Below are positions 15,004-56,835 of a DNA stretch of 64,000 bases, in pieces; position 1 is the first letter of the stretch, and every line of letters starts with the position of its first letter. Source of the stretch: an uncultured Alphaproteobacteria bacterium (lineage in GTDB: Bacteria > Pseudomonadota > Alphaproteobacteria > CAAHEQ01 > UBA3637); the NCBI GenBank assembly GCA_934234055.1, contig CAKQGY010000002.1, forward strand, positions 74,427 through 138,426, read 5' to 3'. The notes under the pieces are model-generated. The model was not told where the DNA came from. It did not search any database and saw only the letters and a program-made list of their open reading frames with translations. Both the position numbers and the translations under genes were made by a program.

Positions 15004-15015
15004 CTAGAATGTGGC

Positions 15016-15070
15016 GCATTCGTGTTCAATGGATTCTTCGGGGCACAAGGTGTGTGCCTCTCAGAATAAT
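15016..15070. repeat. Palindromic interspersed repeat, copy B (subtype 1)
   Basis: GCATTCGTGTTCAATGGATTCTTCGGGGCACAAGGTGTGTGCCTCTCAGAATAAT. Confidence 0.7.
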
Positions 15071-26155: not shown

Positions 26156-26297
26156 GGTTATTCTCCAAGGGAAAATTATATCACTTTTTGGGAATTTTGG
26201 CAAGAAGAAAAGAAAAACGGAGAGAGAAATGTTACATTCGTGATTTGGGCATTGCCGTGGCAACAGGGGGGGGGACAATAATAAGTTGACTCTTTGA

Positions 26298-26373: not shown

Positions 26374-26402
26374 TTGACACAAATAAATTATTGTGGTATA
26401 AT
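26374..26402 (+). promoter_or_regulatory. Sigma70 promoter TTGACA-17-TATAAT
   Basis: Consensus hexamers upstream of the 26439 gene. Confidence 0.55.
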
Positions 26403-26438
26403 AATGGTATAAAGTTTAATTTACAAGGAGGTTATACA

Positions 26439-27161
26439 ATGACTTTTAAGAAAACACTGACTGGGATTGCTTTGGCTGCGGGAGCCATGGTGGCACCGAT
26501 GACCAAAGCCGAGACAAAACCGGCGGATACACCGGCAAAAACTCAGGAAGCCGCGCAAGGTGAAAAAATCACGATGCCGGATTGGATCCCGACAACTGCC
26601 GACGGTAAGTTTGATGAGAAAAAAGCCCATGAACAAGCCGATATGCTGTGGCAAGAAAATGGCGATGCTATTCAGAAATATGCCGATGATGTGGCTGCCG
26701 GTGTGCCGGAAGAAATTGCCTTTACCAAGTTTGCTCACAATTTGGCAAAAGGTGATAAAGAACAAGAAAAACAAATCCTGTCTCTGTATGATGCCGTCAA
26801 AAAAACACGCGAGCAACGCCAAGGGAATATGACAGATGATTCGTTTTTCAAAGCGTGTAATGCAGGAGGGTTGTTTTTTGCATTTTTGGTTTTTTCTTCT
26901 TCTTTGTTAGGAGGAATGAACGATAAAAAAGTGGGGCGCTACTTGAGCATTGCTAATGTTACCGCATTGGCGGTATTCACTCTATCAAAATGGGTAAATC
27001 CAAATCAAGTTACAAAAAACACATTTGTTGACTTTCAAAAACAAATGCATCAAGCCTATACGCAACAAATAAATGGCGATAAGAACTATACGATAACCGA
27101 CATGGCAACGGCCCGGAAGATGATCCAAATGGCGCAAGGCGTCAAAGGAGCAGAAAGATAG
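26439..27161 (+). CDS. Hypothetical secreted protein (signal peptide, Lys/Glu-rich, C-terminal hydrophobic segment)
   Basis: AGGAGG SD 7 nt upstream. The N-terminus MTFKKTLTGIALAAGAMVAPMTKA has a signal-peptide-like profile. Low-GC islet. Confidence 0.55.
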   Translation: MTFKKTLTGIALAAGAMVAPMTKAETKPADTPAKTQEAAQGEKITMPDWIPTTADGKFDEKKAHEQADMLWQENGDAIQKYADDVAAGVPEEIAFTKFAHNLAKGDKEQEKQILSLYDAVKKTREQRQGNMTDDSFFKACNAGGLFFAFLVFSSSLLGGMNDKKVGRYLSIANVTALAVFTLSKWVNPNQVTKNTFVDFQKQMHQAYTQQINGDKNYTITDMATARKMIQMAQGVKGAER

Positions 27162-27245
27162 GTCGTTTGGGTGTTATGTCTGCGAAAGGCCTGCCGGTAA
27201 AAACCGGTGGGCTTTTTCTTTTTTTAGGGGGGAAAATAAAGAATT

Positions 27246-27304
27246 GGTGTTCAATGGATTCTTCGGGGGCAGGTCCCCTTGCCTCTCGCAATGACAGCGG
27301 GGGT
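27246..27304. repeat. Palindromic interspersed repeat, copy D (subtype 1). A second left-arm-less copy lies at 27357-27419
   Basis: GTTCAATGGATTCTTCGGGGGCAGGTCCCCTTGCCTCTCGCAATGA. Downstream, GGCAGGTCCTCG...CTCAGAATGATGGGAGAGAGAGGAGAATGACGGGAGGGAAG. Confidence 0.7.
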
Positions 27305-27513
27305 GGACTGGTTCAAGGCAAAGGTTCATTGCTTTGCGCACCCCACCCGGCCACCGGCAGGTCCTCGCTTACGCAGTGCTCAGAATGATGGGAGAGAGAG
27401 GAGAATGACGGGAGGGAAGCAGCGGTAGGGAAAGGACGAGGCTAAAAAATAAAGAAATAAAAGTTGTGAAGAAAGAAAAAATATGATATCCTGCTGGGAA
27501 AGGAGAATGTGCT

Positions 27514-28038
27514 ATGGTCGTAAAAAGTGCGTTTCACTATAACGGAAAATTGAAAGAAGCGTATATCGTTGATGAACAAGGGCGGAAAAACGGGCCCTAT
27601 GAGTCCTTTCACGAAAGCGGAAAACCGAATGTCAAATGCACCTATAAAAACGATGTCTATGACGGAGTGTTTGAAAAATACTATGAGGACGGGCTGTTGC
27701 AGCTGAAATGTCGGTATCAAAACGGAAAAGAAAACGGGCCCTTTGAAGAATACTACCGAGACGGATCGCTGTATAAAAAAGGCTCTTTCGTGAACGGGGT
27801 CTATGCGGGACCCTATGTCGTGTATAGCGTCAACGGACAAATCGTGGAAAAAGGAGTCTTTGTCAACGGGGAGTTCGTGTCCGATGATATGGAAAAAATT
27901 TGGCAAGAGAAAGCCTTGCCTCGGCAAGAATTAAATGCCAAGTTGGCGGCTGTTTCTGTCCAGATGGCTCCGACCGATTTACGACAGGCGGTAAAACGGG
28001 CTTTGGTGGCCGAATATCACCAAAATGGCGGAAGATAA
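27514..28038 (+). CDS. MORN-variant (MORN_2) repeat protein, YwqK-like
   Basis: 174 aa of tandem 23-24 aa units with the YxxNGKxxGPYExYYxxGxL pattern. Confidence 0.7.
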   Translation: MVVKSAFHYNGKLKEAYIVDEQGRKNGPYESFHESGKPNVKCTYKNDVYDGVFEKYYEDGLLQLKCRYQNGKENGPFEEYYRDGSLYKKGSFVNGVYAGPYVVYSVNGQIVEKGVFVNGEFVSDDMEKIWQEKALPRQELNAKLAAVSVQMAPTDLRQAVKRALVAEYHQNGGR

Positions 28039-29116: not shown

Positions 29117-29278
29117 GACCCTGCCCCGAGTATATGGCCTTGTTGTTTAATGGATTGCCGCGGGACAGACTGGTCTGTCCCTCGCAATGACAAAATGCAG
29201 ATCAGAATGTCTGGGAGGCTGATGGTCGGTGATAGAACCAAGAGAATGCAACTCAGAATGGCAGGAGAGAGAACAAAA
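29117..29278. repeat. Repeat cluster: subtype-2 palindromic copy E (core 29145-29190) plus a CCCTGCCCC motif and two extra CAGAATG half-arms
   Basis: GTTTAATGGATTGCCGCGGGACAGACTGGTCTGTCCCTCGCAATGA is a near-perfect 17-bp-arm palindrome. Followed by ..ATCAGAATGTCTGGGAGG.. and CAACTCAGAATGGCAGGAGAGAGAAC. Confidence 0.7.
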
Positions 29279-36976: not shown

Positions 36977-38746
36977 ATGAATCAATATCGTTCACACACT
37001 TGCGGAGCTTTGCGGACGGAAAATGCCGGCCAAACTGTCACTTTATCGGGCTGGGTCCACCGGAAACGCGACCATGGGAATTTGCTGTTCGTGGATTTGC
37101 GCGATAACTATGGAATCACGCAATGCGTCTTGGATATGACCAGTCCGACGGTCTTTAAAATCTTGGAAAAAATTCGCCCTGAATCCGTTATTACCGTGAC
37201 CGGGCAAGTGCTGAAACGCGACGCCTCTACCATCAACCCGAAAATGCCGACCGGCGAAATTGAAATCGGGGTGGAAGATGTTAAAATCCAATCCGAAGCG
37301 TCGGTGCTGCCTCTGCAAATCGTCGGCGATGAAGATGACCTGTCGGAAGAACGGCGATTGACCTATCGGTTCTTGGATTTGCGCCGGGATAAGCCGCATG
37401 AAAATATCCTGTTGCGGAATAAAATGGCGCGATTCGTGCGCGAAAAAATGTGGTCCTTGGGCTTTCCGGAATTTCAAACACCGATTCTGACATCGTCCAG
37501 CCCGGAAGGAGCGCGGGATTATCTGGTCCCCAGTCGGGTGCATAAGGGCGAATTTTATGCGCTGCCGCAATCACCGCAACAATTTAAGCAATTATTGATG
37601 GTGGCGGGGTTTGATCGCTATTTTCAACTGGCTCCTTGCTTCCGTGATGAAGATAGCCGCGCTGATCGCTCGCCGGGCGAATTCTATCAGATTGACTTTG
37701 AAATGTCGTTCGTAACGCAAGAGGAAATCTTTGCGGTCGGGGAAACCCTGATGACGGATTTGTTCCACGAATTCGCACCCAAGGCGACTGTCTCAGACGC
37801 GCCGTTTGTCCATATTCCGTTTAACGAATCAATGTTGACTTTCGGGACGGACAAGCCGGATTTGCGCAATCCGCTGCGCATCAAAGAGGTCTCCGATGTG
37901 TTTGCGGGCTCGGAATTCGGGTTGTTTGCAAATACTGTGGCCGACGGCGGATTCGTTCGCGCGATTCGCACGCCGCAAACGGCCTCTAAACCGCGCAGCT
38001 GGTTTGATAAAATGAACGGCTTTGCCGTGGAGCAAGGCATGGGCGGACTGGGTTATATTACTTTTGCTGCCGAAGGTCCCAAGGGACCGATCGCCAAGAA
38101 ATTGGACGAAGAACGCCTGAAACGCTTGCAAGAAATGACCGGCGCCGAAACGGGCGATAGCGTCTTCTTTGTGTGCGGAAAGGGCGATCCGGTGGTCAAA
38201 TTTGCCGGCACCGTGCGCACTTTGCTGGGACAGGAATTGGGCTTGATTGAAGAAAATGCGTTCCGATTCTGTTGGATTACGGACTTCCCGTTCTATGAAA
38301 AGAACGAGGAAACCGGCGCCCCCGAGTTCTCGCACAATCCGTTCTCTATGCCGCAGGGCGAAATGGACGCTTTGATAAACCAAAATCCGTTTGAAATTAA
38401 AGCCTATCAGTTTGATATGGTATGCAACGGGTATGAAATCTTGTCCGGCGCAATCCGGAATCATCGGCCTGATGTGATGTTTAAGGCCTTTGAAATTGCG
38501 GGCTATGGGCCGGAAGTCGTTAAGGAAAAATTTGCGGGATTGCTGAACGCGTTCCAGTATGGAGCCCCTCCGCACGGGGGTGCTGCGTTCGGGTTTGACC
38601 GGTTGGTGATGTTGCTGACAGATGAAAGTTATATCCGCGAAGTGATTGCTTTCCCGTTCAATCAACAGGCTCAGGATTTACTGATGCATGCGCCGTCGCC
38701 GGTGACCGAAAAACAATTGCGAGAAGTCCATATTAAATTGCGATAA
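36977..38746 (+). CDS. aspS: Aspartate--tRNA ligase
   Basis: 589-aa class II aaRS. N-terminal OB anticodon-binding domain. Motifs [13 protein letters not shown] and GGAAFGFDR. Confidence 0.95.
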
Positions 38747-38792
38747 ACAGGAGGTTCAATTATGCGCATTTATAAGAAATTTACAAGCAATA

Positions 38793-38804
38793 CCCCCCCC
38801 CCCC
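38793..38804. repeat. Homopolymeric C12 tract (candidate slipped-strand phase-variation switch)
   Basis: Twelve consecutive C. It sits between a strong RBS plus ATG (38749-38764) and the pilin-like ORF, which is in the +1 frame relative to that ATG. Confidence 0.8.
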
Positions 38805-38810
38805 GTATGT

Positions 38811-40574
38811 GTGAATAATTCTTGTTTTTCAAGTGGTTATAATGCGTTATTAAAGTATTTTCGTATGAACTTCGGCCGGCGCTCCGGGGCGCGGGGTGCA
38901 AAGGCATGTTCCGAATCGGGTCGCAGTATGGTAGAGATGCTGGGTGTATTGGCGATTATCGGCGTGTTGACCGTCGGTGGGGTTGCCGGGTATAACTTTG
39001 CGATGACGCGGTATCGGGCCAACGAGATTATAGAAAGCGTTAAACAACGCGCCACCGTCGGTAGCGGGCAATACCTGCAAGGTATGGAAGCGATCAACTT
39101 GTCCGAGTTCCCGAACACAATCCTGGAATATGAGACCGAATGGTTTGACGAGGGCTTGAATGGTGAGAAAGACTTGTTCTCTATTGATGTGAAAGAGGTG
39201 CCGCAGGCGGTGTGTCAGGATATCTTGGATCGGAACTGGACTTGGCCGGCGGGGATTTTTGTGAACGAGCGGGCTATTCCCTGCCCCGAGGGGAACAGCA
39301 AGATGACCTTTGTGTTCGCGGGGGACTTGAACGAGCGCACCGACGCGGAGGCGTATGATCCGTGTTGGGGCAAAACCTGCTGCCGCGTAACGGACACAGA
39401 CACTTTGGCGTTTGAAGAAGGCCAAGACCTATCTAATAAAGAATGTAAGAAAACAGCCGCCAACAATTTAACTTGCTGCACCACGGCGGATACGCGGCAG
39501 TGCTATTTTGATCAGGCTTCAATTGACAGGTATGGGCCTCACCAGAACACAATTGCGGACTGCACCAATGACGGACGGCACCGGTGCGACGACAATTTGA
39601 ACTGCGGCTGCACCACGGGGTGCACGAACCCGGACAAGGTGCAGAATCCGAACACCTGTGTGTGCACTTGCCCGACGGGGGTGCCAAACGCCAATGACAA
39701 CGCGTGTGTGGAATGTCTGGCCGATACAGACTGCACCGGCGGCAAAGTATGCAATATGGCAGATAATACCTGTAAGTGTCCGGAGTCGGGCACAGCACCC
39801 ACGAACGCCTGCTATACGGCCACCGAGCACGCAGCGACGGAAGCATGTTCGGCCTATACAACTTACGAGCCCTTGACCTGCACCGAGCCCAAGACCGAAT
39901 GCGACCTTGCCAACAACGTCTGCAAATGCCCGGCGTGCACGGCTGCCGGTATGACCCAAAACGCCGATACCTGTGAATGCACCTGCCCGGGTGGAAAAGT
40001 GTTTAACTCAATAACCCGAAAATGTGTGGAGTGCGTGAATAATACGGACTGCGCCGGGGATAAAGTTTGTAACACGGCAAACAACACGTGCAAATGTCCG
40101 GCGTGCGCGGCTGCCGGTATGACACAAAATGCCGATACCTGCGAATGCAACTGTCCGACAGGTGAGCGCTTTAATAACGAAACGCAACAATGCGAAACGG
40201 ATTGTGCCACAGCAGCAATCCCGACAATACCGGCAGGTTCAGACGTTTTAGGGGTGAAAATTGATAATGGCCGAAAATATGCTGAAGGGAAATGGGTAGC
40301 TGAACTTGGCCCGTTTGAGTGCCCGTATGTGGTTAGTGGTTGTTTATGGCATACCACTAACGAAGTTGTTTATTACATAGATGATGTAGCGGTATATTCA
40401 ATGATGGCTTGTCATGTTGATGAGGGTTGTTACAGCGATACTTGTGCTGCCGCCGGAAATCGGTGCTGGTCAGCCGAGTTACCTGCGGGTAGTCAACTGC
40501 GCGTAAAGTTATGGAAAGGTAAGAAAAATTGGTATGCGCAGTTTAAAGGAAGTCTATACCTGAATAGACCATAG
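38811..40574 (+). CDS. Cysteine-rich tandem-repeat protein with type IV pilin-like N-terminal domain (in OFF frame relative to the upstream ATG at 38762)
   Basis: 587-aa ORF (GTG start). G-RSMVEMLGVLAIIGVLTVGGVAGY matches the prepilin N-methylation/TM consensus (Glu at +5, AIIG, Tyr). It then carries more than 60 Cys. The unit [DTCxCxCPxG..CVEC..TDC..KVCN..NTCKCP] recurs about 3.5 times, including a near-identical 168-bp tandem duplication at 39921 and 40089. Confidence 0.6.
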   Translation: MNNSCFSSGYNALLKYFRMNFGRRSGARGAKACSESGRSMVEMLGVLAIIGVLTVGGVAGYNFAMTRYRANEIIESVKQRATVGSGQYLQGMEAINLSEFPNTILEYETEWFDEGLNGEKDLFSIDVKEVPQAVCQDILDRNWTWPAGIFVNERAIPCPEGNSKMTFVFAGDLNERTDAEAYDPCWGKTCCRVTDTDTLAFEEGQDLSNKECKKTAANNLTCCTTADTRQCYFDQASIDRYGPHQNTIADCTNDGRHRCDDNLNCGCTTGCTNPDKVQNPNTCVCTCPTGVPNANDNACVECLADTDCTGGKVCNMADNTCKCPESGTAPTNACYTATEHAATEACSAYTTYEPLTCTEPKTECDLANNVCKCPACTAAGMTQNADTCECTCPGGKVFNSITRKCVECVNNTDCAGDKVCNTANNTCKCPACAAAGMTQNADTCECNCPTGERFNNETQQCETDCATAAIPTIPAGSDVLGVKIDNGRKYAEGKWVAELGPFECPYVVSGCLWHTTNEVVYYIDDVAVYSMMACHVDEGCYSDTCAAAGNRCWSAELPAGSQLRVKLWKGKKNWYAQFKGSLYLNRP

Positions 40575-40640
40575 GTGATTGTGAGACGGCAAGTGGTAGA
40601 ACAAGATTTTACCACTTGTGAGGTATGGTGAGGATATAAT

Positions 40641-40750
40641 GTTTTGTGGATTGCCGCGGCCTGACGGCCTCGCAATGACAGAAGGACTTCATTGCTTAAT
40701 GGATTGCCACGAGACGCAAAGCGTCTCTCGCAATGATGGGAGGGAGGAGG
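40641..40750. repeat. Two tandem subtype-2 palindromic repeat copies (F1 40641-40678, F2 40694-40750)
   Basis: GTTTTGTGGATTGCCGCGGCCTGACGGCCTCGCAATGA and GCTTAATGGATTGCCACGAGACGCAAAGCGTCTCTCGCAATGATGGGAGGGAGG. Confidence 0.7.
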
Positions 40751-40789
40751 CGTTGGCGGATCAAAGATTGCGCAGTTCGTCAGAATGGC

Positions 40790-40897: not shown

Positions 40898-41368
40898 CTA
40901 GAACGGGATTTCGTCATCAAATCCACCGGCCGTCGGAGCCGAATCCCAGCCGTTTGCTGCCGATGAATCCGATGCCGGTGTGCTGTCCATCGCCGGAGCC
41001 GAATCACCCGATTGCGCGCCACGGCTGTCCAACATCACCAGTTCGCCCCGATAAGCACCCAAGACAATCTCGGTTGAAAACTTGTCCTGGCCGGAAGCAT
41101 CGGTGAACTTGCGCGTTTGAAGTGCGCCCTCTACATACACCTTGGAACCTTTTTTCAAGAAACGCTCGGCAAAGTCCGCCAAGTTCGTGTTAAACACAAC
41201 CACGCGGTGCCATTCGGTTTTTTCCTGGCGCTCGCCACTTTTATCTTTCCAACTGTCAGAAGTGGCGACAGATAAATGAACAATTTTTTGCCCCGCATTC
41301 GTATGCCGAATCTCGGGATCGCGACCCAAATTACCCACCAAAATCACTTTGTTAATACTACCAGCCAT
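40898..41368 (-). CDS. ssb: Single-stranded DNA-binding protein
   Basis: OB-fold N-terminus (NKVILVGNLGRDPEIR) and an acidic C-terminal tail ending DDEIPF. Confidence 0.95.
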   Translation of the reverse strand: MAGSINKVILVGNLGRDPEIRHTNAGQKIVHLSVATSDSWKDKSGERQEKTEWHRVVVFNTNLADFAERFLKKGSKVYVEGALQTRKFTDASGQDKFSTEIVLGAYRGELVMLDSRGAQSGDSAPAMDSTPASDSSAANGWDSAPTAGGFDDEIPF

Positions 41369-56193: not shown

Positions 56194-56835
56194 ATGCAAA
56201 CAAAAACAAAATTTTATAGCAACGGAAAGGTTAGCGAGGTTTATACCGTTGATGATAAGGGGCAGAAGAATGGGGAATTTCAATCCTATTATGATGATGG
56301 GCAATTGAATGAGAAATGGACGTATAAGGATGGTAAGAAAGATGGTCCTTATGAATTGTATTATAGCAATGGGCACTTGAGAAAAAAGTGCACGTTTAAG
56401 GATGATCAGCTAGATGGGCCGTATGAACTATATTATGGTTATGGTAACAGGCAGTTAGATACAAAGTGCACGTTTAAGGATGGTGAGTATGATGGTCTGT
56501 ATGAAGAGTATTATGTGAATGGACAGTTGAAGAAAAAGTGCACGTTTAAGGATGGTAAGGAAGATGGCCTGTCTGAAGCATATTATAATAACGGACAGTT
56601 GAAGGAAAGGTGCACGTATAAGGACGGTAAGTTAGATGGGGCGTATGAGAGGTATGAAGAAAATGGAGAACTTGTCAAAAAAGGAGCTTATGTCAATGGG
56701 AAGTTTGTGCAGGAAAAGAAAGGGCTGTTCGGGTTGAAAGCTAAATTGGCGGCGGCACAGACAAAGACGGAGCCGGCGAAACAATCTTTGATTGGCAAGT
56801 GCTTCAAGATGTTCCGGGGAAATAGCGGGCGGTAA
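56194..56835 (+). CDS. MORN-variant (MORN_2) repeat protein, YwqK-like; paralog of the 27514 gene
   Basis: 213 aa with 7-8 tandem 23-24-aa units (KCTFKDGxxDGxYEEYYxNGQLKKK). The DNA shows a periodicity of about 72 bp. Confidence 0.7.
   Translation: MQTKTKFYSNGKVSEVYTVDDKGQKNGEFQSYYDDGQLNEKWTYKDGKKDGPYELYYSNGHLRKKCTFKDDQLDGPYELYYGYGNRQLDTKCTFKDGEYDGLYEEYYVNGQLKKKCTFKDGKEDGLSEAYYNNGQLKERCTYKDGKLDGAYERYEENGELVKKGAYVNGKFVQEKKGLFGLKAKLAAAQTKTEPAKQSLIGKCFKMFRGNSGR

Follow-up and report, generated by a model that had tools for sequence, protein, structure and literature searches.

The gene described here, an open reading frame (ORF) at 38811..40574 (+), lies in a 64,000-nucleotide stretch of DNA from an uncultured gut alphaproteobacterium (contig CAKQGY010000002.1 of assembly GCA_934234055.1; the whole stretch is referred to below as the window). 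Profile matches to structures in the PDB, fold comparison, and an AlphaFold2 model support the conclusion that its product begins with a class III (prepilin-type) signal and continues into a genuine pilin-fold module closest to type IVb pilins, and thereby back the type IV pilin-like N terminus that a first-pass annotation had read from the DNA alone. Moreover, the gene is a member of a very large paralogous family found in metagenome-assembled genomes (MAGs) of gut Alphaproteobacteria, wherein the pilin module is common to all members and the parts attached to it vary. Gene callers in the public data start the protein at ATG 38865 and obtain a 569-amino acid (aa) product identical to database protein P0001. 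All aa numbering below follows this product, and 587 aa denotes the whole ORF.

A prepilin-type signal and a pilin-fold module

The N terminus reads MNFGRRSGARGAKACSESG up to the predicted cleavage site and RSMVEMLGVLAIIGVLTVGGVAGY beyond it, with Gly19 at −1, Arg20 at +1, and Glu24 at +5. The AIIG block falls at +11 to +14 and Tyr43 at +24, and the earlier alignment with the prepilin consensus was exact at each of these positions. The hydrophilic leader ends in …SESG↓R (the arrow marks the predicted cut), which supplies the Gly at −1 of a class III signal, and it is followed by ~21 mainly hydrophobic residues with Glu at +5, in agreement with the published definition of this signal as a hydrophobic stretch carrying Glu+5 (PMC4471445 and PMC8179133).

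The AlphaFold2 model of the pilin module (pLDDT 87.4) contains a helix over residues 8 to 59 and then a sheet, such that an alpha1 helix of ~50 residues protrudes from an antiparallel beta-sheet head, as expected of a pilin. A profile search of the PDB returned 13 matches, 11 of which are type IV pilins, and the alignment with PilS extends through the globular part. The closest folds are those of the filament-forming type IVb pilins CofA, TcpA, and PilS. An assignment to the Flp/Tad (type IVc) pilins or to TadE/F was rejected: the residue at +6 is Met rather than Tyr or Phe (there is no EY pair), the globular head comprises ~145 aa, and neither a TadE Pfam match to this protein nor tad genes in its neighborhood were found.

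Prepilins carry Phe at +1, with Met, Leu, Ser, and Trp as the type IVb alternatives, whereas the residue at this position is Arg, and thus not hydrophobic, in every family member examined. The type IVb pilins of enterotoxigenic Escherichia coli (CofA/CofB), V. cholerae (TcpA/TcpB), and Salmonella (PilS) nevertheless resemble the window protein in having a residue other than Phe at +1, and alpha1-N is similar (xSxxE..GVLAIIGVLS here and MTLLEVIIVLGIMGVVSAG in TcpA). CofB and TcpB are, like the window protein, large modular pilins, and serve as minor subunits. However, type IVb systems are encoded in compact operons with peptidase, ATPase, and platform genes, none of which is seen here, Arg+1 has not been reported for them, and both family size and C-terminal polymorphism are far greater in the present case.

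A large family with invariant N-terminal residues

The protein had initially been taken for an orphan, and this proved to be wrong. A word-indexed search yielded 597 homologues, and a full scan with a profile hidden Markov model of the N-terminal domain recovered 6,424 clusters (50% identity) at E ≤ 1e-3 and 5,346 at E ≤ 1e-10. Among GTDB species representatives, at least 552 family loci were detected, nearly all in records titled 'MAG: Alphaproteobacteria bacterium', with human, goat, sheep, deer, buffalo, and rabbit gut samples as sources. The 80 loci compared represent 37 assemblies, and one MAG among them holds at least 10 family genes. The contig of the window has three paralogs within ~55 kb, namely P0015, P0007, and the window gene. 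Clustering of the neighbors of family loci revealed no gene conserved beside members, and we found no literature on the motif RSMVEMLG or on a pilin in RF32.

The string G-R-S-M-V-E-M-L is present in all 120 top homologues (Gly at −1 in 120/120), and Gly−1, Arg+1, Ser+2, and Glu+5 are invariant in 99 of the 99 genes read at the DNA level. At these positions the 99 genes use all synonymous codons, including all four for Gly and both Ser families, which indicates that the N-terminal segment is translated and under selection at the amino-acid level. The nearest ATG upstream of the Gly codon usually lies 5 to 10 codons away in family genes, and the short hydrophilic leaders of the homologues end in (E/Q)-x-G. 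The long 'leaders' of database entries are mostly translated palindromes resembling repetitive extragenic palindromes (REP-like; e.g., …CHKIQSVSRKD… and …SFPRKRESR…) located between the annotated start and ESG↓R, and therefore reflect miscalled starts.

Mature family members are as short as 113 aa and as long as over 1,100 aa. Pilin-only members (113–161 aa) occur in clusters of up to four (L066), and the long members bear varied C-terminal parts. Clusters of two to four pilin-only genes (mature products of 113–156 aa) were observed at L066 15998–18176, L056 1–1269, and L071 2–1084. Such clusters often lie at contig ends, which fits with assemblies breaking where the 5′ ends of paralogs are nearly identical. 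When compared with PpdD-type models, the pilin-only members gave E values of only 0.006 to 0.1.

Pfam recognizes little in 100 members: EGF types, PT-HINT/Hint (three members), F5/8C (one), and PilS_N (PF08805; two, best E 9.5e-5, with no match to the window protein). A C-terminal W..A..WC...YALC module is common to 28 of 120 members, and when its profile was compared with the PDB, 22 of the 24 matches were C-type lectin domains (best E 0.0024). Three proteins (P0039, P0065, and P0077) end in PT-HINT/Hint, with ~10 residues after it and no toxin domain. A terminal Hint of this kind suggests Hedgehog-style autoprocessing of a pilin fusion rather than a polymorphic toxin. In several related MAGs, arrays of ankyrin-repeat proteins adjoin family genes (L070 5013–9462; L054), which hints at interaction with eukaryotic cells.

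A Cys-rich stalk with a terminal beta-sandwich

Beyond the pilin module (aa 20–165), the Cys region (aa 166–447) is a disulfide-rich stalk of beta-hairpin repeats that carries a terminal beta-sandwich domain (aa 448–569), and the protein is thus organized as a modular pilin. There are 52 Cys residues in the 569-aa product and 53 in the 587-aa ORF, fewer than the more than 60 counted in the first-pass annotation, and the ~3.5 module copies given there reduce to two full copies and one truncated copy (~2.6). Likewise, of the near-identical 168-bp tandem duplication described there, the 168-bp period was confirmed but the near-identity was not, because only 91 of 168 bases agree: the first 72 nt match at 62 positions, 81 nt match at 86%, and the remainder is at chance level. 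Tandem Repeats Finder did not report this repeat.

The NCBIfam Cys-rich repeat model TIGR04201 gave a borderline 24.5 bits over two stretches, just below its cut-off of 25. TIGR04201 (from Myxococcales) and the EGF-like and teneurin EGF repeats share with the stalk short disulfide-rich beta-hairpin repeats of the form C..C..DxDC....C....C.C, and EGF_Teneurin and EGF_2 match other family members. However, the TIGR04201 model spans 22 residues and has no defined function, whereas the module in the window protein is longer (54–56 aa). The C-terminal domain was seen only in close relatives.

Among the proteins that fit the modular pilin concept (Raynaud et al. 2021, PMC8179133) are PilB and PilC of Streptococcus sanguinis, which are predicted to be displayed at the filament tip (PMC8179133). 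The family resembles these proteins in combining a small N-terminal pilin module with bulky C-terminal grafts, which serve in binding in PilB and PilC, in many architectures; the extra modules of the paralogs are lectin-like, EGF, F5/8C, or Hint. In contrast, PilB and PilC have the canonical IPR012902/N_methyl motif and their genes lie in a pil operon together with those for PilD and assembly, whereas the present family falls below the N_methyl threshold, has an invariant Arg+1, is dispersed among housekeeping genes in at least 10 copies per genome, and carries modules that Pfam mostly does not recognize.

A poly-C tract in the leader-coding region

The real start of the gene appears to be ATG 38762, which is preceded by a strong Shine-Dalgarno (SD) sequence, and the gene appears to be OFF as assembled, with a tract of 12 C (C12) between this start and the pilin frame. 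The codons after ATG 38762 (CGC ATT TAT AAG AAA TTT ACA AGC AAT A) run into the tract, and with 12 C the frame ends after 18 codons at TAA 38816–38818 (MRIYKKFTSNTPPPRMCE). A tract of 11 or 14 C would fuse this frame with the pilin ORF. The start is codon-for-codon similar to that of P0007 (ATG TGC ATT TTT AAC AAG TTT TCA AAA TAT ACT GCC GAA TCG GGT), which is preceded by a TTGACA-N16-TATACT promoter and an SD, and the leader of the window gene is also like those of P0006, P0013, and P0015 (MRIFSKFSGNAGESG; MRIFSKFS…). The same SD and ATG arrangement is present in L082, L083, L090, and L092. The in-frame ATG 38865 has no SD, and the leader MNFGRRSG… proposed in the first-pass annotation probably does not begin at the true start codon.

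Compared with P0007, the window gene has the C tract and ~117 nt inserted in its leader-coding region, and P0007, which has no such cassette, passes directly from …TAT ACT GCC to GAA TCG GGT. The cassette is identical at 118 of 121 nt to that preceding a different paralog, P0017 (L090; assembly GCA_977942485.1), but only 66% identity is found over the next 600 nt.

A homopolymer of at least 8 nt at the 5′ end of an ORF or in a promoter spacer, where a change in its length shifts frame or spacing, is a mark of phase-variable genes, and the window tract is of this kind. Six loci carry such a tract, three in frame and three out of frame, with intact tracts of 10 to 13 C and one in-frame locus where the tract is interrupted. 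Specifically, L082 has SD-ATG and C12 in frame, L083 has the interrupted tract in frame, and L090 (P0017) has C13 out of frame. L017 holds two paralogs, one in frame with C13 and the other out of frame with C10, and there is no alternative start codon between its tract and the cleavage site. In L080, G12 lies in the promoter spacer (TTGACA-N19-TATACT). G/C tracts of at least 8 nt number 18 in 1.19 Mb, and 8 of these lie within 350 nt upstream of family genes, where ~0.6 would be expected. These layouts, together with the enrichment of tracts near family genes, constitute a signature of simple-sequence-repeat phase variation, and the gene is probably phase-variable at the level of translation.

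We also considered a sigma-70 promoter with the C tract as its spacer and rejected it: in the window gene TTTACA…TATGTG have a spacing of 20 nt and are poor hexamers, a promoter scan gave no site on the + strand, and homology with P0007 puts the tract in the leader-coding region. Upstream of P0004 (L084 258–287) and P0002 (L089 13–34) poly-C is absent, and (CA)n is found instead, with 15 and 11 units, respectively. This (CA)n lies between a TTGACA promoter-like site and the SD, and its length differs between contigs.

Tracts of this kind have well-known counterparts. Neisseria pilC has poly-G in its signal-peptide coding region, and Bordetella fim has promoter poly-C. Homopolymer phase variation is likewise described for Neisseria opc, which has poly-C in its promoter (PMC3960869). 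As in those genes, a G/C homopolymer resides here in the leader-coding region (window, L017, L082, and L090) or in the −35/−10 spacer (L080), the reading frame or the spacing for a surface-protein gene is determined by it, and sister loci are found in different states. The present case differs in coming from an uncultured gut alphaproteobacterium, in having a ~120-nt cassette shared near-identically between paralogs, and in that switching is deduced from sequence, with C12 in both assemblies of the locus.

Variation between relatives and assemblies

Comparison of relatives and assemblies shows diversification by gain and loss of 168-bp units, by short recombination patches, and by C-terminal swaps between paralogs. 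The 93%-identical relative P0002 is without exactly one 56-aa (168-bp) unit, so that the idea of a large, repeat-expandable protein held when copy number was compared. P0004 has further C-terminal Cys repeats added, and P0005, from another strain (L081) and a different chromosomal site (after thyX-rmuC), is nearly identical to ~aa 430, beyond which its C-terminal domain is a different one. The locus was also assembled independently from another sample (L091). Over 21,710 nt the two assemblies agree at 99.963%, and all eight single-nucleotide polymorphisms (SNPs) fall in one patch within the gene (Table 1). Six are synonymous and the others are D188Y and D209N, of which the D209N state matches paralogs P0002, P0004, and P0005. 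This clustering suggests a short recombination or gene-conversion patch derived from a paralog.

Search for assembly machinery

No genes for a type IV pilus, for a type II secretion system (T2SS), or for Tad are present among the genes of the 64-kb window, as had already been noted for pilus assembly genes near this ORF. Regular-expression searches of 1.15 Mb for GFTLIE prepilins, TGSGK-type ATPases, and the GxGDxK A24 motif returned only FtsK, PriA, and IF2, and tblastn searches of related loci with approximate PilD and PilC queries gave no match. A PilT probe produced a single match, a T2SSE ATPase (PF00437, 99 bits; Walker A GPTGMGKTT) at L022 16434–18317, 6 kb from a family gene.

This ATPase has 1,141 homologues, the 120 best at 64 to 99% identity, and three of the five source-named homologues come from 'Alphaproteobacteria bacterium' MAGs with the PGAP label 'TadA'. 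The label was not borne out, given that the best NCBIfam match is the PilT family. No PilB, PilT, GspE, CpaF, or VirB11 assignment could be made, the N-terminal extensions are variable, repetitive, and Pro-rich, and BasE, the ATPase of the bindosome, is weakly matched (39 bits). Among related MAGs, at least one has a traffic ATPase that belongs to the right superfamily and is not clustered with other machinery genes. A gene for a type IV secretion coupling protein of the TraG/TrwB type (L090 1–1684) was also observed within 5 kb of P0017, so that one or more related genomes have a type IV secretion or conjugative system. For Rs-D84 gut Alphaproteobacteria, an order that may or may not include the genome studied here, a survey reports many hypothetical membrane proteins and no type IV pili (PMC12306168).

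Assessment of the proposed explanation and its alternatives

The explanation that we favor, at somewhat better than an even chance, is that the gene encodes a phase-variable modular type IV pilin-like adhesin, cut after Gly19 and residing on or in a short filament composed mainly of pilin-only paralogs. The alpha1-N helix would insert the protein into the inner membrane, a dedicated prepilin-type peptidase would cut after Gly19, and the mature protein would be incorporated into a short type IV filament or sit at its tip. This filament would consist mainly of pilin-only family members, with assembly powered by machinery encoded elsewhere, and the Cys stalk and terminal sandwich would be displayed as a ligand-binding (adhesin) head. 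Slippage of the tract to 11 or 14 C would restore the full prepilin (ON). In favor of this explanation we count the modeled pilin fold with its PDB matches, the translated and selected signal, the size of the family and its pilin-only members, the lectin-like, EGF, F5/8C, and Hint modules of paralogs, the start shared with P0007 together with the tract states and tract enrichment, the variation between relatives and assemblies, and the T2SSE ATPase near a family gene.

A number of findings weigh against this proposal. The Pfam N_methyl model (PF07963) scores 10.7 bits relative to a cut-off of 21.2, and no NCBIfam prepilin or pilin model, TIGR02532 included, matches the whole protein at E ≤ 1, results that also bear out the earlier description of an unrecognized family. 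To our knowledge, Arg at +1 has not been described for any characterized prepilin. Neither an A24 peptidase nor a T2SSF platform protein nor a secretin was found in the window plus 1.27 Mb of related loci, although a sample of this size is expected to hold only about one copy of any single-copy gene, which makes the absence uninformative. Coverage of this contig amounted to the 64 kb plus ~30 kb more. The T2SSE ATPase is solitary and divergent, beside rimP-nusA-infB in L022 and in four other loci (L085–L088), reaches no subfamily threshold (best PilT/PilU, 104 bits versus a cut-off of 319), and is known from loci of related MAGs. The independent assembly L091 has the same C12, tract lengths differing only between paralogous or heterologous loci (C10, C12, C13, and interrupted), and with C12 in both assemblies the gene could be silent. 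The leader in the ON state would be 53 aa long, compared with the 6 to 26 aa reported for prepilins (PMC4471445). Finally, the adhesin role of the C-terminal sandwich depends on fold searches with the C-terminal model, which gave only nonspecific beta-sandwich matches.

The main rival, which we judge unlikely yet worth serious attention, is pilin-like anchoring without a pilus or any extended adhesive filament, in which the class III signal would be processed and the protein would join a surface or envelope array similar to a bindosome or pseudopilus. T2SS pseudopilins offer a comparable case, and there is a precedent in the Sulfolobus bindosome, whose sugar-binding proteins have class III signals (PMC4471445). 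These large functional proteins of Sulfolobus solfataricus, like the window protein in their N-terminal signal, need a type IV filament-type system for surface localization and form no obvious filament (PMC4471445). The scattering of family genes among housekeeping genes without a conserved neighbor fits this alternative, as does the weak BasE match of the sole machinery gene, and long modular members greatly outnumber pilin-only ones among the family genes of the loci compared. The bindosome itself differs in being archaeal and in having a dedicated bas operon, and its proteins have no pilin globular head, whereas a complete pilin fold is present here. Against this alternative, the pilin-only members, with their lengths of 113 to 161 aa and clusters of up to four, resemble major subunits, the invariant Glu+5 and long alpha1 helix are filament-packing features, and the strongest fold matches are to pilins that form filaments.

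A distinctly less probable alternative is an ordinary uncleaved signal anchor, with a transmembrane helix tethering a periplasmic or inner-membrane Cys-rich protein and with the pilin likeness due to convergence or distant ancestry. An Arg immediately ahead of the hydrophobic stretch would fit an anchor of the positive-inside type, and the N_methyl score below threshold, the missing peptidase (again from a sample expected to contain about one single-copy gene), and the Rs-D84 survey without type IV pili (of an order that may or may not include this genome) are all compatible with it. This alternative nevertheless leaves unexplained why Gly−1, Ser+2, and Glu+5 do not vary among thousands of diverged paralogs, why a charged Glu lies within the helix, and why short hydrophilic leaders end in (E/Q)-x-G.

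We attach slightly less weight again to a silent or decaying copy, either a frameshifted pseudogene or a silent cassette that donates sequence to expressed paralogs. The out-of-frame SD-ATG in both assemblies, the in-frame ATG 38865 without an SD, and the clustering of SNPs expected from recombination with paralogs agree with such a copy, but downstream of the tract the 1.7-kb ORF is open throughout, synonymous changes make up six of the eight differences between assemblies, and the out-of-frame state amounts to a single-base slip in a 12-nt homopolymer, with the frame intact at sister loci. It is highly improbable that the protein is a polymorphic toxin or a contact-dependent competition effector with the pilin-like N terminus as its trafficking domain, because the conserved N-terminal domain, the highly variable C termini, and the PT-HINT/Hint domains in 3 of 100 members that recall such systems are countered by the position of Hint at the extreme C terminus with no toxin domain after it, by the lack of detectable toxin or immunity domains in the 100 members and of a conserved downstream immunity-like gene, and by a window protein that ends in a beta-sandwich and not in a toxin fold.

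More broadly, the adhesin explanation could be one instance of a type IV filament-like display system specific to a lineage of uncultured, host-associated gut Alphaproteobacteria, a proposal that we put forward tentatively and consider possible but on balance doubtful. It would comprise a distinct, so far unannotated pilin class, whose invariant processing site Gly↓Arg-Ser-Met-Val-Glu would imply a peptidase with changed specificity, together with polymorphic modular pilins by the dozen in each genome, scattered minimal machinery, and switching of individual genes by homopolymers on a transferable leader cassette. If true, lectin-like, EGF-like, Hint, and beta-sandwich heads would be displayed, and the resulting combinatorial surface variation would follow a logic like that of Neisseria Opa/PilC or mycoplasma Vlp, built on pilins.

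Coordinates and surroundings of the gene

The ORF lies between aspS (36977..38746, +) and ssb (40898..41368, −), as first described, and its features are collected in Table 1. The first-pass annotation also placed interspersed repeats on both sides of the gene. They are present downstream, as two REP-like copies, but upstream there is only the poly-C tract. The downstream copies recur in the window at 29143–29166 and 27285–27318, and small REP-like palindromic intergenic elements, of which the window has two families, also occur at 1158–1217, 15007–15043, and 27220–27279.

Table 1. Features of the pilin-like gene and its immediate flanks (window coordinates)
Feature	Position	Strand	Remarks
Shine-Dalgarno AGGAGG	38749..38754	+	7 nt upstream of ATG 38762; 3 nt after aspS stop
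Probable true start and first leader codons (MRIYKKFTSN-T)	38762..38792	+	Similarity to P0007 start; frame analysis
Poly-C tract, 12 C, inside leader-coding region	38793..38804	+	ATG 38762 in +1 frame relative to pilin ORF
Leader cassette after poly-C, ending at Gly(−1) codon 38919–38921	38805..38921	+	Includes ATG 38865
Predicted mature N terminus, Arg+1 to Tyr+24, hydrophobic alpha1-N with Glu+5	38922..38993	+	Invariant columns in family
Pilin module, aa 20–165: 52-residue alpha1 helix, 4-stranded sheet	38922..39359	+	
Near-invariant Cys117/Cys140 of pilin module	39213–39215 and 39282–39284	+	
Patch with all 8 SNPs versus L091	39266..39489	+	224 nt of 21.7-kb comparison
Cys-rich linker, aa 166–252	39360..39620	+	Conserved in P0002, P0004, P0005
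Cys repeat copy 1, aa 253–305	39621..39779	+	C..QNPNTCxCxCPxG...CVEC..DTDCxGxKVCN...NTCKC
Cys-containing 52-aa spacer between copies 1 and 2, non-homologous to repeat	39780..39935	+	
Cys repeat copy 2, aa 358–411	39936..40097	+	Unit absent from 93%-identical relative P0002
Cys repeat copy 3, truncated, aa 414–447	40104..40205	+	
C-terminal all-beta domain, aa 448–569, and stop codon; predicted jelly-roll-type beta-sandwich	40206..40574	+	
Two REP-like palindromic elements downstream of gene	40639..40760	.	Repeat families D12 and D14

The gene content of the window is otherwise housekeeping only (including pyrG, pyk, sufBCDS, bat-like vWA genes, msbA, pth, mfd, trkA, dus, trmFO, aspS, ssb, pepN, murD, msrAB, ychF, valS, and thyX). 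A G9 homopolymer at 26266–26274 lies ~120 to 170 nt upstream of ORF 26391..27161, whose product is probably secreted, has a signal-peptide-like N terminus (MTFKKTLTGIALAAGAMVAP…), and represents another candidate phase-variable locus. Two MORN/YwqK-like repeat proteins are encoded at 56194–56835 and 27514–28038, the former gene with three ~148-nt internal DNA repeats at 56289–56658.

Implications

What stands out is how large and how invisible the family is, along with its invariant Arg+1 and the apparent switch embedded in the leader. Over 5,000 clusters of proteins that are abundant in MAGs from human and livestock guts now carry no annotation beyond 'hypothetical protein', and the entire family would escape censuses of type IV filaments and modular pilins that rely on motifs. 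The invariant Arg+1 predicts a prepilin peptidase of unusual specificity and widens the accepted definition of a class III signal. Together with the gain and loss of repeat units and the SNP patch apparently taken from a paralog, the poly-C cassette in the leader suggests that surface variation is programmed in this lineage of gut commensals, for which none has so far been described. Recognition of these proteins as a class of pilins provides a handle on how uncultured, probably partner- or host-dependent Alphaproteobacteria may attach to cells and glycans.

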